From the NCBI GenBank assembly GCA_963741215.1, contig CAVUHQ010000011.1, positions 49,935-113,934 of the forward strand: a stretch of DNA of 64,000 nt. The letters are read 5' to 3'. A model generated the notes under the pieces. The model made no database searches. It was not told where the DNA came from and was given only the letters and a program-made list of their open reading frames with translations. Below are positions 4,958 to 43,516 of the stretch, piece by piece. Positions within the stretch are counted from its first letter, which is position 1, and the number at the start of each line of letters is the position of its first letter. The DNA is from an uncultured beta proteobacterium. GTDB lineage: Bacteria > Pseudomonadota > Gammaproteobacteria > Burkholderiales > SHXO01. The translations under genes and the position numbers were made by a program.

Positions 4958-5944
4958 ATGCAGCGCAAGCGTCGCATCTTGCCGACATTGGACTTCTTGA
5001 AAGGCTTCGAGGCCGCCGCGCGTCATTTGAGCTTTACCAAGGCGGCGAGTGAGCTCTTCGTCACGCAGTCGGCTGTAAGCCGTCAGATCCAGTCGCTCGA
5101 GGAGCAGCTGGGCGTCTCGCTGTTTCAGCGCCGACCCAAAGATCTGGTGCTGACGGAGGCGGGCGAGACGCTCTACCGCGCGGCGTCGGAGATCCTGCGT
5201 CAGGTCCGTGAGGCGATCGAGCGCCTCGATGCGGGCAGCCGGCCCGAGGCGCTGACGGTCACTTGCACGGTCGCGTTCGCTTCCTTGTGGCTGATCCCGC
5301 GCTTGTCTGCATTCCGGCAGGAGCGGCCGGGGGCGGATGTGCGCATCGCCGCCGACAACAGCCTGCTCGACCTGGAGCGTCAGCGCATGGACGTGGCCAT
5401 TCGTTTTTGCCAACCGAAGCTGGCCCCGGATCACGCGACCCGGCTGTTTGGAGAGGAGATCTTTCCGGTGTGCGCGCCCGCGCTCCTGCGCGATCGCGCC
5501 AGGCCTTTGAAGCGGCCGGAGGATCTCAGGCACCACGTGCTGCTGCACCTGGAGGAGCCCGGCGGGCTCCAGCCCTGGGTCAACTGGATCACGTGGCTCG
5601 AACCCCTGCTCGCCCTCGAGGTCGACACAGCGGGGTGCAGTGCGTTTCAATCAGTACGATCAGATGATTCAGGCAGCGGTCGATGGCCAGGGCGTCGCGC
5701 TCGGACGCTCGCCCTTGATACGGCGCTTGATCAAGCAGGGCAAGCTCGTCGCACCCTTCGATCGAAAGACCGTCTCACCGCGCGCCTACTATGTGTTCAC
5801 ATCGCGCGACGCCGCGGAGCGGCAGGAGGTCAGCGACTTCGTAGGCATGGCTGCTGCGCGAAGCCAAACGCGACGAGCAGACCAGCGGCCGTTGAAGTCT
5901 TCTTCCTTGGCCGACGGCAATCGCGCCTGTGGCTTACACGCTGA
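4958..5944 (+). CDS. LysR-family regulator, GcvA-like, frameshift near 3' end
   Basis: FEAAARHLSFTKAASELFVTQSAVSRQIQSLE HTH and C-terminal QAAVDGQGVALGR. Divergent from the DMT gene. Confidence 0.92.
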   Translation: MQRKRRILPTLDFLKGFEAAARHLSFTKAASELFVTQSAVSRQIQSLEEQLGVSLFQRRPKDLVLTEAGETLYRAASEILRQVREAIERLDAGSRPEALTVTCTVAFASLWLIPRLSAFRQERPGADVRIAADNSLLDLERQRMDVAIRFCQPKLAPDHATRLFGEEIFPVCAPALLRDRARPLKRPEDLRHHVLLHLEEPGGLQPWVNWITWLEPLLALEVDTAGCSAFQSVRSDDSGSGRWPGRRARTLALDTALDQAGQARRTLRSKDRLTARLLCVHIARRRGAAGGQRLRRHGCCAKPNATSRPAAVEVFFLGRRQSRLWLTR

Positions 5945-6033: not shown

Positions 6034-6057
6034 ATCCAACCCGTGATCCGGTCCGTA
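6034..6057 (+). promoter_or_regulatory. Putative ECF sigma promoter ATCCA-N15-CGTA
   Basis: ATCC at 6034-6037 and CGTA at 6054-6057, 22 nt before the hupE ATG. Same motif at 8387 and 18060. Confidence 0.6.
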
Positions 6058-6079
6058 CATGCAGGCGGGAGGAACGCCG

Positions 6080-7210
6080 ATGACACTCGGGCCCGCACGC
6101 GTTCTCTGTGCTCTGCTTGCCGCTTCCTTGCTGTCGCTCGCTGCCGCCGCTCATGCGCACAAGCCGAGTGACAGCTACCTGACGCTGCGGGTCGCCGGCA
6201 CTGAGATCAACGGCCAGTGGGATATCGCGCTGCGCGACCTGGACCTCGCGCTCGGGCTGGACACTGATCAGGACGGCGCCATCACCTGGGGCGAGGTGCG
6301 GCAGCGTCACGCCGACATCGCGGCCTACGCGTTGTCCCGATTGTCCCTGGCCGTCGATGGCGACGCCTGTCCTGCCACGGCAACCGCGCATCTGATCGAT
6401 CGTCACAGCGATGGCGCCTACGCCGTGTTGCGCTTCACGGCGCGCTGCGCGCATGCGCCGGCTACGCTGGAAGCCACCTACCGGCTGTTGTTCGATCTCG
6501 ATCCTCAGCACCGCGGCCTGCTGCAAGCTCGATTACGGCGGCCAGGTGCGCACCGCGATCTTTGCTGTCGAATCTCCGACCCAGAACCTGGTTCTCGCCG
6601 CGCCGAACCGGCTGCGGCAGTTCGTCGAATACCTTCAGCACGGCATGCGGCACATCTGGCTCGGCTTCGATCACGTCCTGTTCCTGCTGTCGCTGCTGCT
6701 GCCCGCGGTACTGGTGCGCAACGGCATGGCCTGGCAGCCGGCGGCAGGGCTGAAGCCAGCGCTGTGGGACGTGCTCAAGGTGGTCACGGCATTCACGCTG
6801 GCCCATTCCATCACGCTGACGCTGGCCGCGCTGAATGTGATCGCGCTGCCGTCGCGTCTGGTGGAGTCGGCGATCGCAGTCTCGGTTGTGCTGGCGGCAC
6901 TCAACAACATCTATCCGGTCGTGAGCGAGCGGCGTTGGGTGCTGGCCTTCGTGTTCGGCTTGATCCACGGGTTCGGCTTCGCCAGCGTGCTGGCCGATCT
7001 CGGCCTCCCGCGCGGCACTCTGCTGAGCGCGCTGGTGGCTTTCAACCTGGGCGTGGAGGCGGGGCAGATCACCATCGTTGCACTGCTGCTGCCGCTCGCC
7101 TGGTGGCTGCGAAGGAGCTGGGTGTACCGCCGCCTTACTCTGTATGGCGGCTCCGCCGTCGTGGCGATGCTCGCTCTCGCGTGGTTGATCGAGCGCGCGC
7201 TTCGATCTGA
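6080..7210 (+). CDS. HupE/UreJ family membrane protein with extended periplasmic N-terminus, frameshifted
   Basis: Signal peptide followed by AHKPSDSYL; HIWLGFDHVLFL, AFTLAHSITL and FGLIHGFGFA..FNLGVEAGQ motifs. Confidence 0.88.
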   Translation: MTLGPARVLCALLAASLLSLAAAAHAHKPSDSYLTLRVAGTEINGQWDIALRDLDLALGLDTDQDGAITWGEVRQRHADIAAYALSRLSLAVDGDACPATATAHLIDRHSDGAYAVLRFTARCAHAPATLEATYRLLFDLDPQHRGLLQARLRRPGAHRDLCCRISDPEPGSRRAEPAAAVRRIPSARHAAHLARLRSRPVPAVAAAARGTGAQRHGLAAGGRAEASAVGRAQGGHGIHAGPFHHADAGRAECDRAAVASGGVGDRSLGCAGGTQQHLSGRERAALGAGLRVRLDPRVRLRQRAGRSRPPARHSAERAGGFQPGRGGGADHHRCTAAAARLVAAKELGVPPPYSVWRLRRRGDARSRVVDRARASI

Positions 7211-7215
7211 GGCTC

Positions 7216-8380
7216 ATGTCGTGAGCGCGCCGACTCCTGTTGCTTTGCCTCGGCTTGGTGCTCGCCGCGCCAGCCGGGGCAGCGCCCTTCGTGCCCACCG
7301 AGGACGCGCAGGTGCTGGAGCGGCTTCCATTCCGCCCAAACGACCCCGCCGTGCGGGAATTGCAACTGCTGCACGCGCAACTCGTTCAGCAACCCGGAAA
7401 TCAGACGCTGGCGGTTGCCGTCGCGCGGCGTTACATCGAACTCGGTCGCGTCACCGGCGATCCGCGCTATGCCGGCTACGCGCAGGCCGCGCTGGCCCCG
7501 TGGTGGAGCCTGGTCGAACCACCGCGTGACGTGCTGCTGCTGCGCGCGACTCTGCGTCAACGCGTGCACCAGTTCGACGCTGCGCTCGGCGATCTGGCGC
7601 GGGCGCTTGCTCGCAACCCACGCGACGTGCAGGCGCGGCTCACTCGGGCCACGGTATTGCAGGTGCGCGGCGAGTTCGAGGCGGCGAGACAGGACTGCGA
7701 GGCGCTACAAGGTACGGCGCAGGAAGTGATCGCTGTCGCGTGCCTTACCAGCGTGAATGCTAGCAGCGGCCGGCTGCACGAAAGCTACCAGGCGTTGCAG
7801 GAAACGCTCGCGCGTTATCCGGGGGCCGACCCTGGCATTCAGAGCTGGCTGTGGACCGGACTTGCGCGAGATGGCCGCGCGAGCCGGGCTCGCGCAGGAC
7901 GCCGAGCGGCACTTCAAATCGGCACTCGCGGCGGACCCGGCCGATCAGTATCTGCTGGCGGCTTACGCCGACTTCCTGCTCGACCGCGGCCGCGCCCGCG
8001 AGGCCGCTGCACTCGTACAAGCTCATACGCGGGCAGACGGCCTGTTGCTGCGCTATGCGTTGGCGCTGAAGGCGCAGGGTTCGGTCCAGGCGTCGCAGGC
8101 GGTCGAGGAGTTGCGTGCGCGCTTCGACGCGAGCCGGATGCGTGGCGACCGGGTGCATCTGCGTGAGGAGGCGCGCTTCGCGTTGCATCTCGATGCGGAC
8201 CCGCAACGTGCGCTCGAACTCGCGAAGGACAACTGGGCGGTGCAGAAGGAGCCTGCCGATGCGCGGATCCTGCTCGAGGCGGCGCTCGCCGCGAAGGACA
8301 GCGCCGCGGTGCGCGCCTTGCAAGTGTGGCTCGCCCAGTCGCGCCTGGAGGATGTGCAGTTAACGCGCTTGCTCGGCTAG
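7216..8380 (+). CDS. Exported tetratricopeptide-repeat protein, frameshifted
   Basis: Signal-like N-terminus (AAPFVP) and helical TPR-like repeats in ORFs 7240-8166 and 7757-8380. Confidence 0.75.
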
Positions 8381-8386
8381 CGCCGA

Positions 8387-8410
8387 ATCCAGATGCATGA
8401 CACAGCCGTA
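8387..8410 (+). promoter_or_regulatory. Putative ECF sigma promoter ATCCA-N15-CGTA
   Basis: ATCC at 8387-8390 and CGTA at 8407-8410, in the spacer upstream of the DUF4331 gene. Confidence 0.6.
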
Positions 8411-8549
8411 TAGGCAAGCAGACGGCGTCGAATAGAACAAGCCGCGCATCGGAGCACCGTGGCTGCGCGAGCACGCGTGTGACTCAGGATCAAACCGCAC
8501 GACGGCACAGATTGCCGTCGATCACGAAACAGACTTGGTGGAGGGAAAC

Positions 8550-10050
8550 ATGAGACGCATCATCAGACCACTTTTCGCGGTGCTTGCCGCAATCTTTCTG
8601 TCATGGGGCATCACAGCGATGGCGGCAAGCCACCGGGAGGCCCCGCAGATCGCCAACGATCCGACCGCCGACTTGACCAACGTCTACTTCTTCCGCAGCT
8701 GGGAGGACCCGACTAAGGTGATTCTCATCATGAACGTCATTCCGGCGCAGGAGCCCAGCGGCGGACCGAACTATTTCAACTTCGGCGACGACGTGCGCTA
8801 CAGCTTTCACCTCGACACGCACGGGGACGGCGACGCCGACGACATCACCTACGAGATCCACTTCAAGACCGAGTTGCGCGGCGGGCTGAAGAGCCTGAAG
8901 CTGCCGCTGTCGTATGTCGCGATTCCGCCGATCACGGCGCTCGACGGTGCCGGTTCGGACGGGCTGATTCTGCGCCAGAGCTACACCGTGACCGAAATCC
9001 GCCACGGCAAGCGCACCAACGTGGGCGAAGGGCCGATGTTCGCAGTCCCGTCCAACGTCGGCCCGCTGACCATGCCGGACTACGAAGGGCTCGCCCAGCA
9101 AGGAATCTACAAGCTCTCCAACGGCGGCCGCGTATTCGCCGGACAGCGCGACGAGACCTTCTATATCGACCTCGGCGGCGTGTTCGACACGGTGAACCTG
9201 CGCCGCACGCCGTTTCCACTGCTGACAGATGCCGAAGACGCCAACGATTCCGCCAATCCGTTCGGCGATCGATCACTTCTCCGGCTTCAACATCAGCACG
9301 ATCGCGCTCGAGATCCCGATCTCGCACATCACGCATAACCGGAAGAAGGTGATCGGCCTGTACGCGTCCACCGCCCGGCAGCAGTACACGATCCAGACGC
9401 CGAGCGGCCAGCCGCAGGGCTCCGGACCGTGGGTGCAGGTGTCGCGCATGGCCAATCCGCTGGTGAACGAGCTGATCATCGGCACCGGGCAGAAGGACCT
9501 GTGGAACGCCACCGAGCCGGAGTCCGAGGCTGCGTTCCTCGACTTCTACCTCAATTCGCGACTCGCCGTTGCGCTGAACCTGCGGTTCGGTCTGCCGGCG
9601 CTGAATCTGGGCATCCCGGAGACGGGGCGCACCGACCTGGTCAACGCGCTGCTGAAGTATCCGAGCGAGCCGCAGACGGGCAACTGCACGCGCAAGAGCC
9701 CGTGCGCCGAGTTGCTGCGGTTGAACTTGGGCGTCGATCCGGTTCAGCCCCAGCAGCAGAAGCGGCTGTCGGTGCTGGCGGGCGACAACGCTGGCTGGCC
9801 CAATGGCCGCCGGCCCAACGACGACGTGACCGATATCGCTCTGCGCGTCGTGGCCGGTGTGCTGATCGGGCCGAAGCCGCCCGCGAGCGCTGCGCTCAAG
9901 CTTGGCGATGGCGTCAACTTCAACATCGGTGCCGAGGGCAGCAACGTCACGGCCAACGGGATCTACACCAAGTTCCCGTTCCTGCCGACGCCGCACGACG
10001 GTCGCAATCGTGTCCACATGGATTGCGCGCAGAGCCTCACGCCCTGCTGA
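8550..10050 (+). CDS. DUF4331 domain secreted protein, frameshifted
   Basis: Signal peptide then ASHREAPQIANDPTAD; VFAGQRDETF, QVSRMANPLVNE and GWPNGRRPNDDVTDIAL motifs. Confidence 0.88.
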
Positions 10051-10188
10051 TGGCCGGAGCGGCGAACGTTGCCACGCTCCCTTTTCCGCTCGCGCGCGAG
10101 AGGTTGAGAGCTAATAGGCTAGGGTTGAGCGACGGTCTGATGCCCTCGTGCAGTGCGTAGCAAGCGAGGTATGGAACATTCCGGAAGA

Positions 10189-10287
10189 CCGTTCGTGTTG
10201 AGCGTAGCGAAGCGGAGTCGAAACATCGTGCAGATGCCTGCACGCTTCGACTCCGCAGCTTCCGCTGCTACGCTCAGCGCGAACGGG
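10189..10287. repeat. Inverted pair of REP-like palindromic elements (CCGTTCGYGYTGAGCGT...GAGTCGAA)
   Basis: Copy 10189-10225 (+) and copy 10243-10287 (-) between convergent genes. Third copy at 14112. Confidence 0.8.
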
Positions 10288-10314
10288 GTTTTTGCATCAC
10301 GCCCCGGCAAGAGG

Positions 10315-10710
10315 TCAGAGCGTCGGCCGGCCTTCGTGCGCGTAGCTGCGCTCGCGCACGCTCTGGCATTGGATGCAGCGCCTCGCCGTGGGATGCGCGC
10401 TCAGCCGCCCGGAGGCGATATCGCCTCCGCAATCGATGCAGATGCCCAGCGTTCCGGCGCGGGCCCGCGCCTGCGCTGCCTCGATGTCGCGCAACTCCTG
10501 CACGTGGCGATGGATCTGGGCGGCGCCCAGATCGGCAAGCATGTCGGCCACGGACTCGTCGCCCGTATCCATGACGCCGCCGGCCATGTTGAGATAGCTT
10601 TCGTTGCCCGACTGCACCAGCATGGCGCGTGCCTCCGCCAGCAAGGTGCGCTGGCGTTCGGCCAGCAATTGCGTAAGGTGGGCAAGCTCTTTCTTGCTTA
10701 GCGCGGCCAT
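10315..10710 (-). CDS. TraR/DksA family C4 zinc-finger protein
   Basis: Coiled-coil tip DTGDES, then CIDCGGDI..RL.AHPTARRCIQC. Confidence 0.88.
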   Translation of the reverse strand: MAALSKKELAHLTQLLAERQRTLLAEARAMLVQSGNESYLNMAGGVMDTGDESVADMLADLGAAQIHRHVQELRDIEAAQARARAGTLGICIDCGGDIASGRLSAHPTARRCIQCQSVRERSYAHEGRPTL

Positions 10711-10852
10711 CTCGACTTCCTTCTGGGAACGTCCGACGGGGTCGGCCATCGTCTGGGCCGGCCAACCACGCGATTAGTGTAAACCCAGCAGGCACGCTTC
10801 GATAGCGGACTTTCCGCGAGCCGTGCGGAGCAAGCTGCGGGAATGCTGGTCC

Positions 10853-11209
10853 CTAGTGATGCTCGCAACCAGGGCAGCGCGCCGCGCTGGGATGAGACCG
10901 CAGCCAGGGCAGGTCGATAGCCACACCGCAGATCTCGCATACGCCGTAGGTTCCCTGCTCGATCCGCCGCCTGGCGCTCAGAATGTGGCGCAGCTCGGCA
11001 ATCTGGTAGTCGAATGTGGGCGAGCCCAGGTCAACCAGCATCGCTGCAGCCGAGCGTTCGCCGAGTGCGGCTACCTGAGTCGCGATCGCGCGGTACTGCT
11101 CGTGCTCGGAGTGCTCGAGCTGGTCCCGAACCTGGTGGATGAGCGAGTGGTACTGCTCCGTCAGCAGGCGGTCGAACTGGGGGAGTTGCCCTGGATTCAG
11201 CCCTGCCAT
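10853..11209 (-). CDS. Second TraR/DksA family C4 zinc-finger protein, divergent
   Basis: GTYGVCEICGVAI..L.SHPSAARCPGC. Colinear with its neighbour but lacks the DxxD tip. Confidence 0.8.
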   Translation of the reverse strand: MAGLNPGQLPQFDRLLTEQYHSLIHQVRDQLEHSEHEQYRAIATQVAALGERSAAAMLVDLGSPTFDYQIAELRHILSARRRIEQGTYGVCEICGVAIDLPWLRSHPSAARCPGCEHH

Positions 11210-12086
11210 TCTGTGCTCCTCGAATGGTTGCAGTCTGAACATGCGTCCGCGCGGCCGGCTCTGGCCGCCGAGACCCTCCCCCATGCCGACGAATACCGCC
11301 AAAGGTTTTTTGTGGCTGTGCCGTTTAATCATAGTTCATCGACCGGCCGGAATCTGTGATTCAGGCGGCAGACCCGATCCTGGCGCGATAGTCGCTTTCG
11401 CTATTCGCGATTCGCGAATAGAATGCGGGCCAACCGCGCAAGTCATGGGGTTTGCCGTGGGGGGTTGCCCTTGAGCCTCAAGCCGCAGGATATCTGCATC
11501 CTGCTCAAGATCGTCGCACTGGACCGTGCTCCCTGGTCTTACAGCCAGTTAGCCTACGAACTGGGGATGTCGCCCTCGGAGGTCCATGCCGGAGTCAAGC
11601 GCGCGACGGAGGCGTCGCTAATGCGACTGGAGGAGGGCTGGGGCAGTCCGGACCCGGGCGCGCTCGAGGAGTTGCTGGTGCACGGCGTGAAGTACGTGTT
11701 CACCCCGATCCACGGCGGGCTGACCCGCGGGATGCCCACCTCCTACGCGGCGCCCCCGCTGAGCCGCGTCCTGACCCGAGCGGATGAGGCGCCGCCGGTG
11801 TGGCCGGACGAAGAAGGCGAGGTGCGCGGCTACGAGTTCTCGCCGTTGTACAAATCGGTGCCGTTCGCCGCGCGGCGTGACCCGAGGCTGTACGAGCTGC
11901 TGGCGCTGGTCGATGCGATCCGGGGCGGCGCGATGCCGGAGCGCGAGGCCGCGATCCGCGAGTTGAGGGTGCGGCTTGACAAGGAATCGTCCGACAGCGC
12001 GGTGCCGATCGCTGCGCAGCAAAGAGATGTGAGTGCGCGCGCAGCCGGATCGAGGGTAGCGGCAAGCAAAATCAAACGAGGTAGCA

Positions 12087-14076
<1,990 letters not shown>

Positions 14077-14111
14077 TGAGGGACGAGGGGCTAGGGGCTG
14101 GTGAGCTAAAG

Positions 14112-14156
14112 CCCGTTCGCGCTGAGCGTCGTGGCGAAAGCCGCAGAGTCGAAGCG
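14112..14156 (+). repeat. REP-like element, same family as 10189-10287
   Basis: CCCGTTCGCGCTGAGCGT...GAGTCGAAGCG matches the reverse complement of 10243-10287 at both ends. Confidence 0.8.
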
Positions 14157-14228
14157 CTCGACACGAACGATTCGCACTCCGCCTTCAAGCCTGAGCTCTT
14201 CACGCGTAACTCCGCCGGAGGCGGGACC

Positions 14229-16697
14229 ATGGAAGGCAAGAAAGGCAAAGACGACAACACCGGTGATCTCTTCGGCGATACGGCGAGCGATGTCGCGGTC
14301 GTCGAGCAGGAGAGCAAGCCTGTAGCGAAAGCGCCGGCAAAGAGCGAAACGAGCGGTGGCGGCGGCAATCTCCCGCCGCACTTTGCGCCGATGAGCGGCG
14401 AATACGGCGATGCGTTGCCGATCGGGCGCTACGCCTCGACGCAATACCTGCAATACGCCATCGCCACGGTGAAGGACCGTGCGCTGCCGCGTGTGGGCGA
14501 CGGACAGAAGCCGGTGCAGGGCCGCATCCTCTACTCCATGTGGGATACCGGCACGCGCGCGGGCACCAAGCGCACCAAGTCCGCGGCGGTGGTCGGGGAG
14601 GTGCTCGGGAAGCTGCATCCGCACGGCGACCAGTCGGTGTACGACGCTCTGGTGCGGTTGGCGCAGGACTTCACCATGCGCTACCCCCTGATCGATGGTG
14701 AAGGCAACTTCGGCTCGCGCGATGGCGACGAAGCCGCGGCCTACCGCTACACGGAAGCGCGGCTGACCCGATTCGCCGAGGTCCTGCTGTCGGAGATCGA
14801 GATGGGCACCGTGGACTTCGTGCCCAACTACGACGGTACGCGCCAGGAGCCGGTGGTGTTGCCGGCACGGCTGCCGGTGGTGCTGCTCAACGGCGCGTCG
14901 GGGATTGCGGTGGGCATGGCCACCGAGGTCCCGAGCCATAACCTCAATGAAGTGGCCAACGCCGCGATCGCGATGATCCGCGACCCGGAGCTCACCGTCG
15001 CCGGCCTGATGCGGCACATCAAGGGTCCGGATTTCCCGGGCGGCGGGCAGATCATCACGCCGCGCGCGGAGTTGAAGGACGCGTACACCAGTGGCCGCGG
15101 ATCGGTACGCGTGCGCGCCCGCTGGACGATCGAGCGCCTGGCGCGCGGCCAGTGGCAGGTGGTGGTGCACGAGCTGCCGCCCGGAACCTCGACCAAGAAG
15201 GTGCTCGAGGAGATCGACGCGATCACCAACCCGCAGCCCAAGGCGGGCAAGAAGTCGCTGACACCCGAGCAGACGCGCGAGAAGCAGCTGATGCTGTCGA
15301 TGCTGGACAAGGCGCGTGACGAGAGCGACCGTCAGCACCCGGTACGGCTGGTGTTCGAGCCGAAGACATCGAAGATCGACGAGACCGAGTTCGTGAATCT
15401 GCTGCTGGCCAAGACCAGCCTGGAAACCAATGCGCCCATCAACCTGGTGATGGTCGGGTTGGACGGGCGTCCGACCGGCAAGAATCTGCGCGACATCGTC
15501 TCGGAGTGGGTGCAGTTCCGCTTCACCACCGTGACTCGGCGCACGCGGCACAAACTGGCGCAGGTCCTGGACCGCATCCACGTGCTCGAAGGACGCATGA
15601 TCGTCCTGCTGAACGTGGACAAGGTGATCAAGATCATCCGCAACGCGGACGATCCGAAGGCCGACCTGATCAAGGCCTTCAAGCTGTCCGAGCGCCAGGC
15701 CGAGGATATTCTCGAGATGCGCCTGCGCATGCTGGCCAAGCTCGAGCACATCAAGATCGAGCAGGAGCTGGACGACAAGCGCAAGGAGCAGAAAGGCCTC
15801 GAGAAAATCCTCGGCAGCCGCAAGGCGCTGGAGGACCTGGTGGTCGGCGAGATCGAGGACGACGTCAAGACCTTCGGTGACAAGCGCCGCACCAAGATCG
15901 AAGAGGCGGAGAAGGCCGAAGTCGAGACGCCGGTGATCGACGAGCCCGTGACCGTGATCTTCTCGCGCAAGGGCTGGGTGAGAGCGCGGCAAGGCTGGGG
16001 TGTGGACCCGACCACGCTGTCCTTCAAGGAAGGCGACGAGCTGCTGACCATGCTGCAGGTCCGCACCGTGGATCCCGTGATCTTCCTCGACTCCAAGGGC
16101 CGTGCGTACACGGTGAATGCAGGCGAGTTGCCGCCGGCGCGCGGCGACGGTGCGCCGGCCTCGTCGCTGGTTGAAGTGCAAGAAGGCGCGCTCGTCATGT
16201 ACGTAGTCGGCGGCAAACCCGAGACCAGCGTAGTCGTGGCCTCGACCGGCGGCTACGGCTTCTTGAGCAAGATCGCCGACATGATGTCCAACCGGCGTGC
16301 GGGCCGCGAGTTCATGACCATCGAGGAGGGCGAGACGCCCGTGCCGCCGTTTATCTACGAGGACGCAGCGGGCAACTACATCGCCGCCATCTCAGAGCAG
16401 GGCCGCATGCTGCTGTTCCAGGTTTCGGAAATGAAACAGATGACCAAGGGCCGCGGCGTGATCGTAATGGGGCTGGAGAAGGAAGAGAAGCTGGTAGCGG
16501 TCGCGATCTCCGATCAGCCCGGGCTGTCGGTGCTCGGTATCAGCCGCGGCAAGGAGAAGGAGGTCACGATCAAGGGCAAGGACCTCGGCCACTACGCAGG
16601 GCATCGCGCGCGCATGGGACGCGTGCTGCCGGACAAGCTCAAGCCGTCGGCGTTGAAGGTGTTACCAAAGCCGGCAGAGCCCGGTTCGGAAAGCTGA
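14229..16697 (+). CDS. parC: DNA topoisomerase IV subunit A
   Basis: DRALP..DGQKPVQ.RILY, HPHGD, DGEGNFGS, catalytic RYTEARL, NGASGIAVGMAT, and a degenerate beta-pinwheel CTD without a GyrA box. Confidence 0.95.
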   Translation: MEGKKGKDDNTGDLFGDTASDVAVVEQESKPVAKAPAKSETSGGGGNLPPHFAPMSGEYGDALPIGRYASTQYLQYAIATVKDRALPRVGDGQKPVQGRILYSMWDTGTRAGTKRTKSAAVVGEVLGKLHPHGDQSVYDALVRLAQDFTMRYPLIDGEGNFGSRDGDEAAAYRYTEARLTRFAEVLLSEIEMGTVDFVPNYDGTRQEPVVLPARLPVVLLNGASGIAVGMATEVPSHNLNEVANAAIAMIRDPELTVAGLMRHIKGPDFPGGGQIITPRAELKDAYTSGRGSVRVRARWTIERLARGQWQVVVHELPPGTSTKKVLEEIDAITNPQPKAGKKSLTPEQTREKQLMLSMLDKARDESDRQHPVRLVFEPKTSKIDETEFVNLLLAKTSLETNAPINLVMVGLDGRPTGKNLRDIVSEWVQFRFTTVTRRTRHKLAQVLDRIHVLEGRMIVLLNVDKVIKIIRNADDPKADLIKAFKLSERQAEDILEMRLRMLAKLEHIKIEQELDDKRKEQKGLEKILGSRKALEDLVVGEIEDDVKTFGDKRRTKIEEAEKAEVETPVIDEPVTVIFSRKGWVRARQGWGVDPTTLSFKEGDELLTMLQVRTVDPVIFLDSKGRAYTVNAGELPPARGDGAPASSLVEVQEGALVMYVVGGKPETSVVVASTGGYGFLSKIADMMSNRRAGREFMTIEEGETPVPPFIYEDAAGNYIAAISEQGRMLLFQVSEMKQMTKGRGVIVMGLEKEEKLVAVAISDQPGLSVLGISRGKEKEVTIKGKDLGHYAGHRARMGRVLPDKLKPSALKVLPKPAEPGSES

Positions 16698-16713
16698 GTG
16701 GGAGCCTGCCGGC

Positions 16714-17589
16714 TCACTCCGCCGTCACGCTTACATCGACCGACATCCCGAGAAAATCGCCTGGCGCACCAGTGTAGGTGCCAGTGAGCGGCACGGCTTG
16801 GGACGGGTCGCGCGCGACGGCTACCCGGATCAGATTCTTTCCCCCGACCAGGCCATTGGTCGGGTCGAACTCGACCCAGCCGGCGCCGGGCAGGTAGATC
16901 TGCACCCAGGCGTGGGTCGCTCCGCCGCCAACGAGCCCGCCGCCTCCACCGACCAGGTGCTCGTCGTAGAGGTAACCGGACACGAAACGGGCGGCAAAGC
17001 CCAGGCTGCGTGCCGCTTCCATCATGAACAGTGCGAAATCGCGGCAACTCCCCGCGCGGGTCTCCAGCGTTCTCACCGGGTCCTGGGTCCCCATCTCGTC
17101 TCGTCGCGCGTAGGCGAATTGGAACTGAATCGATCGGGTCATCGCAATCAGAATGTCGAGCGTGTCCAGGCTGCGATCGCCCTCGACGAACCAGCGTGCC
17201 CAGGTGTCGATCTTGCGCCCGGAATCCGCGTAGCCGCGCTCGACGGTGCGGCTGAGATCAGGCATCTCCTCGGCCGAGTAGCTGAATGGATAGCGTTGCG
17301 CATACGGCTCCAGCACCAGCGCGCGCTCGGGGGCCGGGAACTGCTCGGCCCGGAAAGTCGAATCGAACACCAGCTCCGTCGCAGCCTGGTCGAAGGTGGC
17401 GATCGCAATCGAGTTGCCGAACACGTCGTGCAGCCAGCGCACCTGCGCCCCCGGCAGTATGCGCAGCGCGGTGTCGAGCAAGCGCAGATCGTGGCTGTCG
17501 CGCGGACGAAACATCAGCCGATGCTCGCCGAACGCGACCGGCCGCGCGTAGCGATAGGCCGTCTTGTGTTGCACCGTGAGGATCGGCAT
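16714..17589 (-). CDS. Transglutaminase-like family protein (Bact_transglu_N plus core)
   Basis: LTVQHKTAYRY..LMFRPRD N-domain; Cys-His-Asp triad in GSCRDFA, ATHAWVQIY and EFDPTN. Confidence 0.92.
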   Translation of the reverse strand: MPILTVQHKTAYRYARPVAFGEHRLMFRPRDSHDLRLLDTALRILPGAQVRWLHDVFGNSIAIATFDQAATELVFDSTFRAEQFPAPERALVLEPYAQRYPFSYSAEEMPDLSRTVERGYADSGRKIDTWARWFVEGDRSLDTLDILIAMTRSIQFQFAYARRDEMGTQDPVRTLETRAGSCRDFALFMMEAARSLGFAARFVSGYLYDEHLVGGGGGLVGGGATHAWVQIYLPGAGWVEFDPTNGLVGGKNLIRVAVARDPSQAVPLTGTYTGAPGDFLGMSVDVSVTAE

Positions 17590-17660
17590 GGCGGGATTCC
17601 TGGTCCACGAGGATGGGCGCGGAGCGGTGCTCTCCGCGCCCATCTTCTGCTTCTGCGCGC

Positions 17661-17936
17661 TCAGCTCTTCTCGACTACGCCACCCTTGGCTTTGCAGGTC
17701 TTCTCGTCCAGCGGCACCCAGCCCTGGCCCTTGCAGCCGTTCTGGCCCTTGCAGCTGTTCTTGGCGCCCGCGCACTCGCTCTTGCCCTTGCACGAGTTCA
17801 CGCCAGAACAATGAATCTTGGCTTCGTCGGCCGCGCTGACAGGCGCGACAGTCTGAGTGATGAACAGGCCCGCCGCAGCGGCGGCAATAGCGACTCCCGA
17901 CAGCGTAGTAACGGTGGTTCTCTTGCTGCGATCCAT
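17661..17936 (-). CDS. Secreted Cys-rich peptide, BufA2 (bufferin precursor)-like
   Basis: AGGAG RBS, signal peptide, and a six-Cys core CSGVNSCKGKSEC...NSCKGQNGCKGQGW...CKAKGG. Confidence 0.8.
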   Translation of the reverse strand: MDRSKRTTVTTLSGVAIAAAAAGLFITQTVAPVSAADEAKIHCSGVNSCKGKSECAGAKNSCKGQNGCKGQGWVPLDEKTCKAKGGVVEKS

Positions 17937-18014
17937 GCTGGTCTCCTGTACGACGACTGCTTTACCGCGCCGTGTCCTCGCGTCGTCGATGCAGCCACGG
18001 CGGCCGGGGCTGCG

Positions 18015-18060
18015 ATCCAACCCCGATGCCACAGTGTACGTCGAGACGCGCTTGGTGGAT
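18015..18060. promoter_or_regulatory. Overlapping pair of opposite-strand ECF-type promoters
   Basis: Minus strand ATCCA-N15-CGTA (18060->18037) points toward the peptide gene. Plus strand ATCCA-N15-TGTA (18015-18038) points toward the amidohydrolase. Confidence 0.55.
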
Positions 18061-18181
18061 GCGGCGCAAGCGTAGCCGGGCGACGACGATCCTTACGCCG
18101 CGGCGACGCTCCAGCTCTGCGTGAACTCCATTTGGTGCGAATTGTCAGCCGACGGTATATTGGCGTGAAGGAGGAAGCCCA

Positions 18182-19675
18182 ATGCGATTGCTTTCGGACC
18201 AGGAGCGCAACGAACTGTTGCCGGCAGAGCTCGCCGCTCTCGATTCGCCTATTCCCACGCAGATCGTTTCCAGCGACGAGTTCGTGCCCATTGCACAGAC
18301 GCCCGCACAGCGCGAGGTCGAGGCCCGGCTGAAAACGCTGGCCGACGAACTGGCGCATCGGCAGGGGATGACCCGTCGGCAGTTCTTCCGGACCGCCGCC
18401 GGCATGGCTACCGCCTTCGTCGCCATGAACGATGTGTACGGTCCGCTGTTCCGCGTGAGCCGGGCGGAGGCCGCTACGCCGGAGCTGGCCGATGAGCGCG
18501 CCAACCAGCTGGGCGGGCAGTTCGTGTTCGACGGGCACACCCACTTCCTGCGCGAGGACACGCAGATCCAGACCTTCGTGCGCATGCGTGAGGCGGTGGG
18601 CAAGGCGGGCTGGAACCCCGAGCTGGTTGGCAAGCCGCAGACCATCGAGGACCTCAAGTTCGACAACTACATGAAGGAGATCTTCTTCGACAGCGACACC
18701 AAAATCGCCATCATCAGCAGCGCGCCTTCCGACATTCCCGCCGACTGGTTCCTGACCAATCCGATGACTGCCAAGGCACGCGCGCGGGTGAACGATCTGC
18801 TCGGCGCGCGGCGCATGCTGAGCCACGCCATCTTCACGCCCGGTCAGCCGGGCTGGCTCGAAGAGGTGGAGCGTGCCATCGCCGAGGACGAGCCCGACTC
18901 GCTGAAGGGCTACACCATCGGCGACAACACCCACAAAGATCTCAGCCGCTATCCGTGGCGCATGGACGACGAGAAGCTGGTCTATCCGTTCTATGAGAAA
19001 GCGTGGAAGGCGGGCATCAACAACATCTGCGTGCACAAGGGATTGTTCCCGCCGTCGGTCGAGAAGCAGTATCCCCATCTGCGCGCTTTCTGCGACGTGC
19101 GCGACGTGGGCCAGGCAGCCAAGGACTGGCCGATGCTGAACTTCATCATCTACCACGCCGCCTACCGCTTTCCCGGCGGCGGCACGCCCGAGGAGGCGCT
19201 GGCTCAGTTCGAACAGACCGGACGCGTCGACTGGGTGAGCGATCTGGCCGAGATCCCGGAGAAGTACGAAGTCACCAACGTTTACGGAGACCTTGGGCAG
19301 GTCTTCGCCACCACCACCGTGGCCCAGCCGCGGCTGGCCGCCGCCATCCTCGGCACCCTGGTGAAAGGTCTCGGTGCGAAGAACGTAGTATGGGGCTCGG
19401 ATGCCGTGTGGACCGGTGCGCCGCAGTGGCAGATCGAGGGATTGCGGCGGCTCGAGATTCCCGACGACATGCAACAGAAGCACGGGTTCGCGCCGCTCGG
19501 CTCGGCCACCGGACCGGTGAAGAGCGCCATCTTCGGTGAGAATTCCGCGCGCCTGTACGACATCGAGCCGACGACGTACGCGAGCGGCGGCGACCGCCTG
19601 GCGGAACTGAGGCAGGCTTATGTCAATGGCGGCGGCGTCCGCAGCAACCTGCGCTATGGTTACGTGACGCGTTGA
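18182..19675 (+). CDS. Amidohydrolase family (Amidohydro_2-like) protein
   Basis: FDGHTH metal motif, ICVHKG, IIYHAA and VWGSDAVW..PQWQIE; internal RRQFF motif. Confidence 0.88.
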   Translation: MRLLSDQERNELLPAELAALDSPIPTQIVSSDEFVPIAQTPAQREVEARLKTLADELAHRQGMTRRQFFRTAAGMATAFVAMNDVYGPLFRVSRAEAATPELADERANQLGGQFVFDGHTHFLREDTQIQTFVRMREAVGKAGWNPELVGKPQTIEDLKFDNYMKEIFFDSDTKIAIISSAPSDIPADWFLTNPMTAKARARVNDLLGARRMLSHAIFTPGQPGWLEEVERAIAEDEPDSLKGYTIGDNTHKDLSRYPWRMDDEKLVYPFYEKAWKAGINNICVHKGLFPPSVEKQYPHLRAFCDVRDVGQAAKDWPMLNFIIYHAAYRFPGGGTPEEALAQFEQTGRVDWVSDLAEIPEKYEVTNVYGDLGQVFATTTVAQPRLAAAILGTLVKGLGAKNVVWGSDAVWTGAPQWQIEGLRRLEIPDDMQQKHGFAPLGSATGPVKSAIFGENSARLYDIEPTTYASGGDRLAELRQAYVNGGGVRSNLRYGYVTR

Positions 19676-27761: not shown

Positions 27762-28345
27762 TCAGGTGCCAGCGGGGACGAGGTGTTTCAGCGCCGCCTT
27801 GCGCAGCGCGTCGGAAAGCTTGGGGTCGTCGACAGCGCGCGCCAGCAGCAAAGTGCCGACCATCGTGGCGACGGTAACGAGCGCACGCTCGTGCGCGCCC
27901 GATTGCCCCCAGTCGGGCGACTGGCGGGCAACGAGATCGATCATCTCCTTGATGCGGCGCGTGGCGGCGCGTCGCACCTCAGGCGCTTGGCGCGGCATCT
28001 CCGAGCCCAGGGCGGCAATCGGACAGCCCGTCTCCGCGCCTTCGACGTGCGCCTTCGAGAGGTAGGCGCGCAGCAGCGACTGCAACGCCTGCTCCGGCGG
28101 CGCCGCGGCGGCAATGCGCGGTCGACGCGGCGACGGTCTCGGCGCCGGCGCGGTCCGCCGCCTCGGCAAGCATCGCCTCGCGCGAAGGGAAGTGGGCGTA
28201 GAAGCCGCCGTGCGTCAGGCCGGCCTCCTTCATGATGTCGGCGACGCCGGTGCCGTTATAGCCACTGCGCCGGATGGCGCGCGCGGCCACTTCGACGATG
28301 CGTTCGTGGGTGGCTTCCTTGCGATCTGCTGGCGGCTCTTTTCAT
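27762..28345 (-). CDS. TetR/AcrR family regulator, frameshifted
   Basis: GYNGTGVADIMKEAGLTHGGFYAHF HTH and GCPIAALGSE C-domain. Confidence 0.9.
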
Positions 28346-28800: not shown

Positions 28801-29172
28801 CTAAAGTCGAAACCAAGGCATCGTGAGATAAACGCACGCGATCATCGCGAGCTAACGGAATCACCCACAAGCCAACCCTGACCAGAATCCGTGCGCGTCC
28901 ACCGCTCGGGAAAACACGGCGCCAAGCAGGCCGAACACGAGCGCTCCGAGCGCGGCCGATGGCGGTCCAGCCGTACCAGTACATCGCGGGTGCAAGGAAC
29001 CCCATCGCGGGGTCGACGACATCCCGCGAGTGGTGCGTGCCTAAGAGGACGACGCCTGCGAGGGATAGACGGTGAACAGCGCGAGATCCAGCTTGAGCGC
29101 GACCACGTAGAGGACAGCGAAAGCAGTCCCGTAAGCGAATGCAAACCTGCGGAATGCATGCGAAGACGTCAT
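28801..29172 (-). CDS. Small membrane protein, frameshifted
   Basis: MTSSHAFRRFAFAYG..PAMYWYGW..MPWFRL with hydrophobic segments. Start overlaps the upstream stop (ATGA). Confidence 0.6.
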
Positions 29173-40185: not shown

Positions 40186-43092
40186 TTACAGCGTTGGAAC
40201 CGACACTGGCCGCGGAGGTGCCACAAGGACCAGGCGCTCGATGGGTTCGGGCATGGCGACGCCGTATCCCTGAGCGAGATCCACGCCGATGTCGCGCAGC
40301 ATGGCCAGGGTGCCTTCGTTCTCGACGAACTCGGCGATGGTGAGCTTGCCCATTACGTGGCCGATATCATTGATCGCCTCGACCATGGCACAGTCGATCG
40401 GGTCGTTCAACATGTTCTTCACGAAACCACCGTCGATCTTGAGAAAGTCCACCGACAGATGCTTGAGATACGCGAAGGAGGACATGCCGGCGCCGAAATC
40501 GTCCAGCGAGAACCGGCATCCGAGCGCCCGCAATTGTTGAATGAAATGGATTGCCTTTTGGCGATTCGCGATGACCGCTGTCTCGGTTATTTCGAAACAG
40601 ATGCTGGTGTGGGGGATGCCGGACTGGCTGAACTGTTCGCGCACGAAATCGAGAAATCGCTCATCGGACAGGGAGTCCCCGGACAGGTTGATCGCATAGG
40701 TGTCGATCGAATTTGCGCTTCTCTGCTGACGCAGCTCGGCTACTGTGGAGAACGCGGTTCGGACAACCCAGCGATCGATCGCCGGCATCAGGTTATAACG
40801 CTCCGCGGCCGGGATGAAGTTTCCCGGGGCAATCAGCTCGCCGCGCTCGTCGACCATGCGGATCAGCAACTCGACGTGGGGATTCATGCCGGAACCTGGC
40901 TGGAGTGGGACAATCCTCTGTCCATAGAGACAGAATCGATCTTCCTCGAGCGCCTTGTGGATGCGGCCCACCCATTCCATCTCCCCGTGCCGCAGGGTCA
41001 GGTCGCTATCTTCCGGATGGTAGAGCTGTACGCGGTTGCGACCTTTTTCCTTCGCGATGTAGCAGGCAGCGTCCGCCGCGCTCATGACCTCTGCCAGCGT
41101 AAACGCTCCATCCACGATGGTCACCACACCGATGCTCACACCGATAGAGAACGAGCGGTGTTGCCAGGTAAACGAAAACTCGGCCACCGCTAGGCGCAGA
41201 TCTTCGGCAAGCCGGGCACCATGTTCCGGATTGCAGTTTTCCAGCAGGACGCCGAACTCGTCTCCGCCTAGACGAGCCAGCGTGTCCCCCGCCCGCAGGC
41301 GCTGCTGCAGGATGGCGCTGGTCTGGCGCATCAATTCGTCGCCCGCGGCATGACCACAAGTGTCGTTGACTACCTTGAACTGGTCCAGATCGAGATACAT
41401 GACCGCGTGATGGCGCTGGTGCTCGGCGGCACTGGTCAGCGCCCGGATCAACCGGGCTTCAAACTCTCGCCGGTTGATGAGCCCGGTCAGCGCATCGTGG
41501 CTCGCCTGATAAGAGAGCTTGGCGGCGTACTGGCGCTCACGGCTCACATCACGGAACACGAGCACGACACCGACAATCTGCCCGCCGCGATCGCGAATCG
41601 GAGCTACGGTCTCGTCTACCGGGATCTCACTGCCGTCGCGCTGCACTAACTGGTTCATGGTTCCCAGCTCGACGGTACACCCTTCACTGAGCACGATCTC
41701 GATTGGATCGGGCGTCGGTTGGCGAGTGTGCTCGTTGATCAGCTTGATGAAGGAACGCGACGGCAGGCCCTGGATCTCGGCAATCTTCCAGCCGATCAAG
41801 GCCTCGGCGGCGGGATTGACATACTCGACCAATCCATTGGTGTCGGTGGTGATCACCGCATCCCCGATGGACTGCAGTGTCACCTGCGCCCGTTCTTTTT
41901 CGGCAAAGAGCTCGGCCTCTGCCGCCTTGCGATCGGTGACGTCGGTGATCGACCCCGCCATTCGCACGGCCTGTCCGGAAGCATCCCGAACCGAACGTCC
42001 TCTGGCCCGGAACCACCGGTACTCGCCCGAGCGAGCCTTGAGGCGATGCTCCACGTCGTAGGGTCTATCTTCCCGCAAGTGGGCCTTCATCGCGGCCACC
42101 GTGGCCATCAGATCCTCCGGATGCAATCGGGAAACGAAGGCGGAACGCGTGTTCTCCAGATGATCGGCGGGATAGCCCAGGAGTTCGTTGAACCGAGAGG
42201 AGTAGTAAGTTTCGTCGGTCTGTACGTTCCAGTCCCAAATGCCGTCATTGCTGCCGGTGACGGCAAGGTTGAAGCGCTCCTCGCTGCGCCTCAGCGCATT
42301 CTCGAACGCTTCGCTGTGCTTCAGCATGCGCCGCGAGAGCAGGATGCCCAGCGGAACCAGCGTTACCGCGAGTGCTACCGTCGCGATCACCAACAGCAGC
42401 TTGGTCTTGCGCGTGGCTTCCCCCAGTGACGAAGAAAACGTGTCCTCCTCCGGGGTAAGCCTCGCATCGACGGCGTAGATGCGCTCGAGAGTCGCATACA
42501 ACCTGTCGGGATCCGTGTCGCCGGCGGAGATCCGCTCGTGCAACTCATCGGCCACTTTGATGAATTCGTCGATCGAGCGGTCGCCATCGGCCCACAGCGT
42601 AATCGAGCGGTCGATGTAGCTCACGTTCCTGAACCGCCGGAACAGCATGATCATCCCCGGGATGTCGTCGGGGTGATTGCGGCCTTCGAGGAACCCCCGA
42701 TAGGCCACCGCGTAGTCGGGGTCGGGCTTCTCCAGTTCGAGGCGCGCCTTGCGATCGCCCAGCGGCACCGCCAGCGCTGCACGGAAGTTCTGGTAGTCGG
42801 CTTCGGAGCGGGTATGCGCATAGCGCATGAGATGGGACAGCGACTGCTTCTGCGCCTTGGACCACAGGCTCTCACCCTCGACGAAAGCCCTGCCGGCGGA
42901 CAGAATCTCGATGCTCTGCGTCGCCAGAACGACGAGCAAGACCACGATGGCGAGAAACGGCCAGATGAGCAGGAACAGACGTTTGCTCGGGGCCAGCCCT
43001 ATGAAGAGGGAACCCAGCCGCATGCGGGGACGACCCGATTCCGCCGGGGCGGACGGGCGTTTCTGCCTCATAGTGGACGTGTAACTGAACAA
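40186..43092 (-). CDS. Membrane PAS-PAS-GGDEF-EAL c-di-GMP enzyme
   Basis: Two TM segments, two PAS domains, HDALTGL..RLGGDEF, ELLIR, and LDDFGAGMSS..LKIDG. Confidence 0.95.
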   Translation of the reverse strand: MFSYTSTMRQKRPSAPAESGRPRMRLGSLFIGLAPSKRLFLLIWPFLAIVVLLVVLATQSIEILSAGRAFVEGESLWSKAQKQSLSHLMRYAHTRSEADYQNFRAALAVPLGDRKARLELEKPDPDYAVAYRGFLEGRNHPDDIPGMIMLFRRFRNVSYIDRSITLWADGDRSIDEFIKVADELHERISAGDTDPDRLYATLERIYAVDARLTPEEDTFSSSLGEATRKTKLLLVIATVALAVTLVPLGILLSRRMLKHSEAFENALRRSEERFNLAVTGSNDGIWDWNVQTDETYYSSRFNELLGYPADHLENTRSAFVSRLHPEDLMATVAAMKAHLREDRPYDVEHRLKARSGEYRWFRARGRSVRDASGQAVRMAGSITDVTDRKAAEAELFAEKERAQVTLQSIGDAVITTDTNGLVEYVNPAAEALIGWKIAEIQGLPSRSFIKLINEHTRQPTPDPIEIVLSEGCTVELGTMNQLVQRDGSEIPVDETVAPIRDRGGQIVGVVLVFRDVSRERQYAAKLSYQASHDALTGLINRREFEARLIRALTSAAEHQRHHAVMYLDLDQFKVVNDTCGHAAGDELMRQTSAILQQRLRAGDTLARLGGDEFGVLLENCNPEHGARLAEDLRLAVAEFSFTWQHRSFSIGVSIGVVTIVDGAFTLAEVMSAADAACYIAKEKGRNRVQLYHPEDSDLTLRHGEMEWVGRIHKALEEDRFCLYGQRIVPLQPGSGMNPHVELLIRMVDERGELIAPGNFIPAAERYNLMPAIDRWVVRTAFSTVAELRQQRSANSIDTYAINLSGDSLSDERFLDFVREQFSQSGIPHTSICFEITETAVIANRQKAIHFIQQLRALGCRFSLDDFGAGMSSFAYLKHLSVDFLKIDGGFVKNMLNDPIDCAMVEAINDIGHVMGKLTIAEFVENEGTLAMLRDIGVDLAQGYGVAMPEPIERLVLVAPPRPVSVPTL

Positions 43093-43516
43093 GGTGGATT
43101 CCCGCGCTATCCTCTGTCCAAGCCAAAAGCGCTTGGAATCTACAACTGCTCCAATGGTGCGGCGCGGCCTTACGCCTATGGCATCAGGCTCGGGCCTCGT
43201 CTACCCGGGCCAAACACCACGAACACCCATGCATCACATAGGGTCTTCACGACGGCGGATCCCCAGGTCCTCCGCCCCTACTATTACGGTTCTGTTTCAA
43301 ATCAATTGAGTGCACGGACCTGCTATTCGAAGGCCCCCGGTACACATCGGCGGAATGCTGCGCTGGTTTTTCCGCCTGACGGCTTGATTTGACGGTGAAA
43401 GTGCAAGTCCCATGCCAAACGCCAGTAGCGGGTTTGCCCCGCGAAAATCATCCGATCGAGGTGATCTTCCTCGATCGCGCGCGCAAGCGCTGCCTCAGCT
43501 CCCCTTCGAGGTCCTG

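Follow-up and report, generated by a model that had tools for sequence, protein, structure and literature searches.

In a 64,000-nucleotide stretch of DNA from an uncultured beta proteobacterium (contig C11, positions 49935-113934; hereafter the window), three copies of a bipartite motif, ATCCA-N15-CGTA, stand upstream of a hupE gene, a DUF4331 gene and bufA2, which encodes a bufferin precursor. We consider it very probable that these three sites are promoters read by a SigK/RpoT-type extracytoplasmic function (ECF) sigma factor (group ECF18, next to ECF19), and that a sigma factor/RskA operon on contig C22 of the same genome is their autoregulated driver, a reading that we draw from comparing sequences. 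According to the mechanism proposed here, the anti-sigma factor RskA would release the C22 sigma factor, and RNA polymerase loaded with it would bind a -35 box, TG(A/C)ATCC(A/G), and a -10 box, CGTAt, which lie 16 nt apart (counting from ATCC to CGTA), and would start transcription a few bases beyond CGTA. We infer the start of transcription at these sites, the use of the C22 sigma factor in particular, and the inducing signal.

The assembly comprises 4.8 Mb (64% G+C) and is 71% complete, and the relatives found by sequence are throughout uncultured Burkholderiales or Betaproteobacteria metagenome-assembled genomes. An earlier note on this DNA had proposed that one ECF sigma factor encoded elsewhere co-drives hupE with its tetratricopeptide repeat (TPR) neighbour, the DUF4331 gene and the bufferin gene, which would together make up a system for envelope or metal stress. 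The comparative evidence presented below backs this proposal.

Motif sites in the window

A pattern search of the window found four exact copies of ATCCA-N15-CGTA, at 6034 (+), 8387 (+), 18060 (-) and 29086 (+). The expected number is 0.13, and among 100 dinucleotide shuffles of the sequence the maximum was two, so that none reached four. The first three copies lie where the earlier note had placed them, and the fourth had gone unlisted there. Sequence, open reading frame (ORF) calls and Pfam/NCBIfam matches confirm that the first three are all intergenic and that each is directed at its gene (Table 1). The copy at 29086, by its location and score, we judge to be a non-functional chance occurrence.

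The earlier note also read a copy ending in TGTA as a promoter of the amidohydrolase gene. This copy exists (at 18016 rather than 18015), but its reading as an ECF18-type promoter is not supported, given its very low matrix score and the G before ATCC, a base found there in none of the 35 reference sites described below. Its GGATCG segment is kept in five relatives and falls within the hairpin region of the bufA2 leader. In that 5' leader, positions 17990-18030 (-) and the syntenic loci L011-L015 contain a conserved inverted repeat, CCGGGG..GGATCGC..CCCCGG; the fold of the whole leader is not notable (z = -1.46). Elsewhere in the window, a weak variant before a gene for a PAS-PAS-GGDEF-EAL protein has its -35 box, GGGAATCCA, in common with the hupE site, but CGTC at -10, and its status is uncertain. 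An Rfam scan of the window returned no matches, and a simple sigma-70 consensus scan of positions 16500-18300 returned no sites.

Conservation of the motif before orthologous genes

Of the 28 genomes of the genus, 21 have a BufA2 family match, which exceeds the cut-off in 20. The 40 regions fetched from the genus yielded 41 distinct BufA2 ORFs, and upstream stretches of up to 300 nt were searched: ATCC(A/G)-N15-CGTA precedes 36 of these 41 ORFs, at a median of 105 nt from the chosen start codon. The 35 distinct sites give the extended consensus cTG(A/C)ATCC(A/G)-N15-CGTAt, in which the spacer sequence is variable. T stands at -3 in 27 of these sites, G at -2 in 32 and A or C at -1 in all 35, and CGTA is followed by T in 21. 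When the window's bufA2 locus is aligned with the syntenic loci of relatives, both boxes of the 18037..18060 site are kept. In the other families of the order (tallies that include one unpublished genome, G052), a site scoring at least 12 was found before 7 of 29 BufA2 ORFs, five of them with the exact core, so the link between motif and BufA2 is not universal.

Two further bufferin clusters may be mentioned here. The canonical BufA1-MNIO-DUF2063 cluster of the relative G013 carries the motif (L057:2315). In the genome under study, a second MNIO cluster with an unusual gene order (C18:129600-132600, that is, L002:4607-7585) comprises a 64-aa ORF, MNIO, DUF2063, DUF2282 (BufA1) and DoxX; no site scoring at least 13 lies near the BufA1 cluster on this contig.

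Occurrence of the motif upstream of orthologues was a check suggested in the earlier note, and conservation is indeed observed before hupE and DUF4331 orthologues as well as before bufA2. All three close hupE orthologues, including that of this genome, have the site (the other two show 70-71% identity), as GCATCC(A/G)-N15-CGTAT at the same position in G008 (L072:4795, score 19.5) and G009 (L097:452, score 21.8); the more distant HupE-like genes of G013 and G011 have no site upstream. For DUF4331, the site occupies an equivalent place in three of the five clear orthologues, namely those of this genome, G008 (score 19.8) and G019 (score 23.4). Finally, a site is found in 11 of the 17 fetched upstream regions of msrP, one of them (G021) with a core mismatch, and by coordinates also before the msrP genes of G002, G042 and G005, which together with this genome makes 15 of 21.

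A sigma factor operon preceded by the same motif

In five relatives, all pattern matches and all Sigma70_r2 matches were listed. In four of them (G013, G002, G021, and G005), the motif lies about 240-270 nt ahead of the region 2 encoded by a single ECF gene, which is the orthologue of C22:52073-52600 in the genome under study; counting this genome with the four, the motif is found about 200-260 nt upstream of the C22-type sigma factor. The site of the C22 operon, cttGCATCCG-N15-CGTAt at C22:51764, has invariant boxes and a varied spacer in the alignment with the four relatives. As the motif precedes the sigma factor/RskA operon, autoregulation of this operon is suggested.

The C22 sigma factor, 176 aa long, consists of regions 2 and 4 (Pfam Sigma70_r2 and Sigma70_r4_2). 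The next ORF, directly downstream (L004:2558-3340), matches RskA_C (PF10099, E = 9.5e-17) and reaches 99.9 bits with the NCBIfam anti-sigma model NF052375, just below the cut-off of 100. The closest solved relative of the sigma factor is Mycobacterium tuberculosis SigK (4NQW, E = 3.7e-27), with which both sigma-4 cysteines align, and its score with the NCBIfam SigK subfamily model is 137 bits, under the cut-off of 226. The search for an ECF/anti-sigma pair, which the earlier note had recommended, has in this way produced a candidate in the C22 sigma factor and its predicted RskA partner. Orthologues of the sigma factor are present in 26 of the 28 genomes of the genus. One genome, G022, which is 100% complete, is without a sigma orthologue, without a BufA2 match and without the motif before msrP.

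Upstream of the operon lies a PduO-type cob(I)alamin adenosyltransferase gene (L004:1349-1912, with the predicted promoter at about 1825-1850), an arrangement kept in the four relatives. LitR partners of LitS sigma factors use adenosyl-B12, and the ECF18 member LitS is reported to be light-controlled.

The motif is the consensus already predicted for the ECF18 family. Table 4 of PMC13492112 gives GCATCC / CGTAT for ECF18 (RpoP) and GTGATC / CGTATA for ECF11. The supplement of PMC7826278 describes ECF18 as a proteobacterial group whose members have two conserved cysteines in sigma-4, an anti-sigma factor similar to RskA at +1 and a predicted, often autoregulatory promoter, TGCATCTT / CGTA. The C22 sigma factor resembles this description in its two sigma-4 cysteines, its one-pass RskA-like anti-sigma factor at +1 and the TGCATC.. 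/ CGTA before its own operon. Both the match to the published ECF18 consensus and the SigK-like ECF/RskA operon carrying the motif bear out the SigK/RpoT-like assignment made in the earlier note. Its description of an undescribed regulon applies to the regulon content, which alone is new, and not to the motif.

The promoters could be genuine and yet be served by a different sigma factor, or by several cross-talking ones, which we consider improbable. A second SigK-like ECF sigma factor, on contig C6, also has the SigK subfamily model as its best match (131 bits, below the cut-off); its anti-sigma factor carries a cupin domain of the ChrR type, and the region upstream of the sigma gene showed no motif. 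The ECF gene at C18:40341-40901 is preceded, 64 nt before its start, by the similar GAATCCG-N16-CGTC; its close orthologues (at least 61% identity), however, occur in 3 of the 27 other genomes of the genus while the motif is widespread, and we therefore reject it as the cognate sigma factor. It may instead govern a small regulon of its own, whose -35 box is similar. Together with a zinc-finger anti-sigma gene, this ECF gene faces genes for a Tat-exported metallophosphoesterase and a cupredoxin (C18:40251-41800, L007). Cross-talk among the ECF11, ECF18 and ECF26 motifs is suggested in PMC13492112, but the ECF11 box needs a G before ATCC, which none of the 35 sites has, and the exact motif lies upstream of the C22-type sigma factor only, in five genomes.

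That the motif is instead the operator of a DNA-binding regulator, such as a response regulator or the LysR encoded at 4958-5944, we hold to be very unlikely. The LysR gene does lie just upstream of hupE, an inverted ATCCA/TGGAT pair is present in the bufA2/amidohydrolase intergenic region, and the hupE site contains a direct repeat (ATCCA and ATCCG), but these inverted and direct repeats are not common to the sites. What the sites do have in common is a pair of short boxes kept at a constant distance while the sequence between them is free, a single orientation relative to the gene in every case, and identity with a published sigma-family consensus; moreover, the motif precedes a sigma operon itself. 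All of these features argue against an operator.

Genome-wide matrix scan and predicted targets

Scanning the whole genome with the scoring matrix built from the picked sites gave 12 matches with a score of at least 18, versus one with the reversed matrix. These 12 matches were obtained with the 15-nt spacer, while other spacers of 12-18 nt gave 1-7. Genome-wide frequency was another check raised in the earlier note, and the answer depends on the motif used: the extended matrix gives the excess just described, whereas the minimal motif is at background (see below). The top matches, from bufA2-MNIO-DUF2063 down in score to the window's bufA2, are intergenic and correctly oriented (Table 1).

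On this basis, the regulon is predicted to comprise hupE-TPR, DUF4331, bufA2-MNIO-DUF2063, msrPQ, the DUF1223 gene, the sigma/anti-sigma operon and the stand-alone bufA2, with which the transglutaminase-like gene is possibly included. The exported msrA is probably also part of the regulon.

Table 1. Predicted promoter sites, other motif matches and genes discussed in the text. Positions without a contig name are those of the window; scores are matrix scores.
Feature	Position	Strand	Score	Details
ECF18-type promoter (predicted), gGGAATCCA-N15-CGTAc	6034..6057	+	15.6	exact match; hupE ATG (6080) 22 nt downstream
ECF18-type promoter (predicted), cCGAATCCA-N15-CGTAt	8387..8410	+	20.2	exact match; DUF4331 ATG (8550) 139 nt downstream
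ECF18-type promoter (predicted), cCGCATCCA-N15-CGTAc	18037..18060	-	19.3	exact match; bufA2 ATG (17936) 100 nt away
Fourth exact match	29086..29109	+	9.8	antisense inside minus-strand membrane-protein reading frame; judged non-functional
One-mismatch copy gcGATCCA-N15-TGTA	18016..18039	+	-0.9	faces amidohydrolase gene; not supported as promoter of this type
Weak variant GGGAATCCA-N15-CGTC	43076..43099	-	11.0	before PAS-PAS-GGDEF-EAL gene 40186-43092 (Pfam); status uncertain
bufA2-MNIO-DUF2063 site	C18:150516		25.1	exact core
msrPQ (msrP-msrQ) site	C35:320741		24.7	exact core
ECF sigma/RskA operon site	C22		22.1	
DUF1223 gene (thioredoxin-like protein) site			21.5	
FecR/SPOR protein gene site	C29:24437		20.1	exact core
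TetR-HlyD unit site			18.9	
Exported PMSR (msrA) site			18.0	one -35 mismatch
hupE, HupE_UreJ_2 family	6080..7224	+		Pfam PF13795, E = 9.1e-51; signal peptide, then AHAHKPSDSY; 3' end approximate
TPR-repeat exported protein gene	7240..8380	+		directly 3' of hupE; Pfam TPR_19/TPR_16 on ORFs 7240-8166 and 7757-8380 (frameshifted)
DUF4331 secreted protein gene	8550..10050	+		Pfam PF14224; frameshift near 9266
Transglutaminase-like gene	16714..17589	-		3' of bufA2; Pfam Bact_transglu_N and Transglut_core
bufA2, stand-alone BufA2 bufferin precursor	17661..17936	-		NCBIfam NF050166; 91 aa, signal peptide, 6 Cys
Amidohydro_2-family gene	18182..19675	+		Pfam PF04909

Observations weighing against the proposed regulon

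Several observations count against the reading of these sites as promoters of one ECF18-type regulon. Since a regular expression selected the sites from which the matrix was built, the core columns of the matrix are predetermined, although the flank columns and the rate of 36 of 41 BufA2 genes are not fixed by site picking. The window's own hupE site scores just 15.6. Exceptions are found among the orthologues compared: five of the 41 BufA2 genes lack the motif, the DUF4331 genes of G004 and G009 have just a degenerate GAATCAA-N18-CGTAT, the G006 and G001 loci, where DUF4331 matches are fragmentary, have no site in the fetched stretch, and 6 of the 21 msrP upstream regions are without a site (G015, G017, G006, G018, G022, and G019). 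As for the sigma factor, the motif lies upstream in 29 of the 79 sigma-orthologue loci of other species and is missing from the remaining 50. Furthermore, the predicted C22 promoter falls within the cob(I)alamin adenosyltransferase gene that precedes the operon, at the 3' end of that gene, and coding constraint therefore adds to the conservation of this site. The second SigK-like ECF on C6 and the C18 ECF with its similar upstream box belong here as well. Lastly, every compared genome is a metagenome-assembled genome, and gene starts are those of our own ORF calls (genes were called from ORF lists and Pfam, with NCBIfam for BufA2).

The frequency of the bare nine-base motif is a further such point, as it is at genome background, with 28 matches in 4.8 Mb for N15 versus 8-30 for each alternative spacer of 10-21 nt. 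A reversed-pattern control (63 versus 11 matches in one scan, 13 versus 2 in this genome) is too lenient, since the sigma-less genome G022 still has eight pattern matches versus two in the control. These two results, along with the clearly non-functional exact copy at 29086, are what favors the view that the window cluster is a product of chance or composition and that the regulon has been over-read. We nevertheless find this view scarcely credible: none of the 100 shuffles contained four matches, and conservation is position-specific before the 36 BufA2 genes and before hupE, DUF4331 and msrP orthologues, where the spacers have diverged. Because the minimal pattern is not enriched genome-wide, the significance of the sites rests on the extended motif, the genomic context and conservation.

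Gene neighborhoods in the window

The hupE reading frame is broken: a tblastn search with the G008 orthologue gives matches at 6161-6610 and 6525-7202, in different frames. The C-terminus of the TPR protein and the location of its gene before DUF4331 are kept in G008, G009, and G004. The DUF4331 gene is also split, with PF14224 positions 2-187 on ORF 8535-9338 and 195-421 on ORF 9229-10050 (tblastn pieces 8550-9266 and 9268-10047); an ESM Atlas search with DUF4331 returned nothing beyond DUF4331 clusters. As many other genes of this assembly are likewise frameshifted, the frameshifts in hupE, the TPR gene and DUF4331 are likely assembly indel errors rather than marks of pseudogenes. Fused or frameshifted readings elsewhere include parE-parC, read as one 1536-aa ORF (12087-16697), a TetR gene without its N-terminal domain (27762-28169), and, on contig C18 (L007, L003), one anti-sigma and one ECF gene. 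Two adjacent DksA/TraR-type zinc-finger genes (10315-10749 and 10853-11332, both on the minus strand) lie between DUF4331 and parE.

The Cys-rich, bufferin-like peptide of the earlier note proves to be a true BufA2, with 92.3 bits against the NF050166 cut-off of 60. Its gene has no adjacent MNIO (BufB) or DUF2063 (BufC) gene and is flanked by the transglutaminase-like and amidohydrolase genes; MNIO genes are found on contig C18. Stand-alone bufferin precursors are described as common in PMC12452194. The earlier note had joined peptide and transglutaminase into one unit preceded by the motif. The motif-bearing BufA2 part of that claim stands, but the transglutaminase-like gene was detected by tblastn next to bufA2 at none of the 40 BufA2 loci taken from relatives; parC comes after bufA2 there instead, and an MNIO gene follows bufA2 at 14 of the 40. 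In the window, a scan detected no terminator-like site between the two genes, and the transglutaminase-like gene is possibly co-transcribed with bufA2.

The amidohydrolase gene adjoins bufA2 at seven of the relatives' loci (tblastn) and is thus a conserved neighbor of this bufA2 copy; nothing indicates that it is a member of the regulon. About 20 nt before its start, a GGTATATT box at 18150-18165 (+) is kept here and in five relatives. The GGTATATT box may be the -10 element of an ordinary amidohydrolase promoter, although it escaped the simple sigma-70 scan.

Relation to known ECF systems

The studied ECF18 members named in PMC7826278 are RpoT of Pseudomonas putida, LitS of Burkholderia multivorans, a Rhodobacter sigma factor and RpoP of Cupriavidus metallidurans, the last being tied to nickel and cobalt damage (PMC7826278, PMC13492112, PMC6851896). 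As far as these sources describe them, the studied members act on a solvent efflux pump, on hemT, and on cfa and photolyase genes that are induced by light, unlike the content predicted here. The ECF18 neighborhoods conserved in the supplement of PMC7826278 include DUF4331 at +2 of ECF18s13 and SelR at +2 of ECF18s11. Our literature search, which covered such sources in part, returned no paper that connects bufferins with ECF18 or RskA and none that mentions DUF4331, nor did it show bufferin, msrPQ or hupE genes among the targets of the studied ECF18 members.

In Caulobacter, according to the portions of PMC3511200 and PMC11626156 concerned with it, SigF-NrsF, for which copper and other metals are inducers, controls buf1, buf2, and yedY/msrP via GTAACC-N16-CGAA. 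That system (ECF16) is similar to the one proposed here in that one ECF sigma factor presides over bufferins and msrP, a conjunction that in our case is predicted from sequence. The two differ in the promoter, in the ECF group and in the six-helix NrsF, and the set predicted here extends beyond the Caulobacter SigF regulon to hupE-TPR, DUF4331, and DUF1223. NrsF/SigF-type control of the present genes is rejected, as no PF06532 match was found in the 71%-complete assembly and the promoter motif differs. Buf2-type bufferin clusters are described in the relevant part of PMC12452194 as being without sigma genes.

The M. tuberculosis SigK-RskA system (ECF19) provides the closest solved relative of the C22 sigma factor and shares with the C22 pair the two cysteines and an anti-sigma factor of the RskA type. 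Its regulon consists of exported envelope proteins in the account given by PMC7509140. It is actinobacterial, however, and its targets mpt70 and mpt83 are unrelated to those predicted here.

Biological meaning of the predicted regulon

Bufferins (copper-chelating), periplasmic or exported methionine-sulfoxide reductases, DUF1223, a HupE-type metal transporter and DUF4331 are combined in one gene set, which thus points to a response to envelope stress caused by periplasmic copper or another metal and/or by oxidants. Conceivable signals are copper, nickel or cobalt damage, hypochlorite, and light. A broader reading can be offered tentatively, at rather less than even confidence: the ECF18/RskA pair may have taken the role that SigF-NrsF has in Caulobacter, sensing periplasmic copper/nickel or oxidant (possibly photo-oxidative) damage and inducing bufferins and methionine-sulfoxide repair. 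HupE_UreJ_2-TPR, DUF4331, and DUF1223 would then be unrecognized parts of an envelope defense, and DUF4331 would count among the core targets of ECF18 across Proteobacteria.

Regulation of Buf2-type clusters has been described for Caulobacter alone, and the predicted C22 sigma factor and its sites supply a testable regulator and promoter in another lineage. The organism is uncultured, but its predicted promoters are compact and well defined and could therefore still be assayed in a heterologous host. The ECF18 group, widespread but poorly understood, would gain a coherent predicted regulon, and DUF4331 would gain its first functional context, namely metal or oxidant stress at the envelope.

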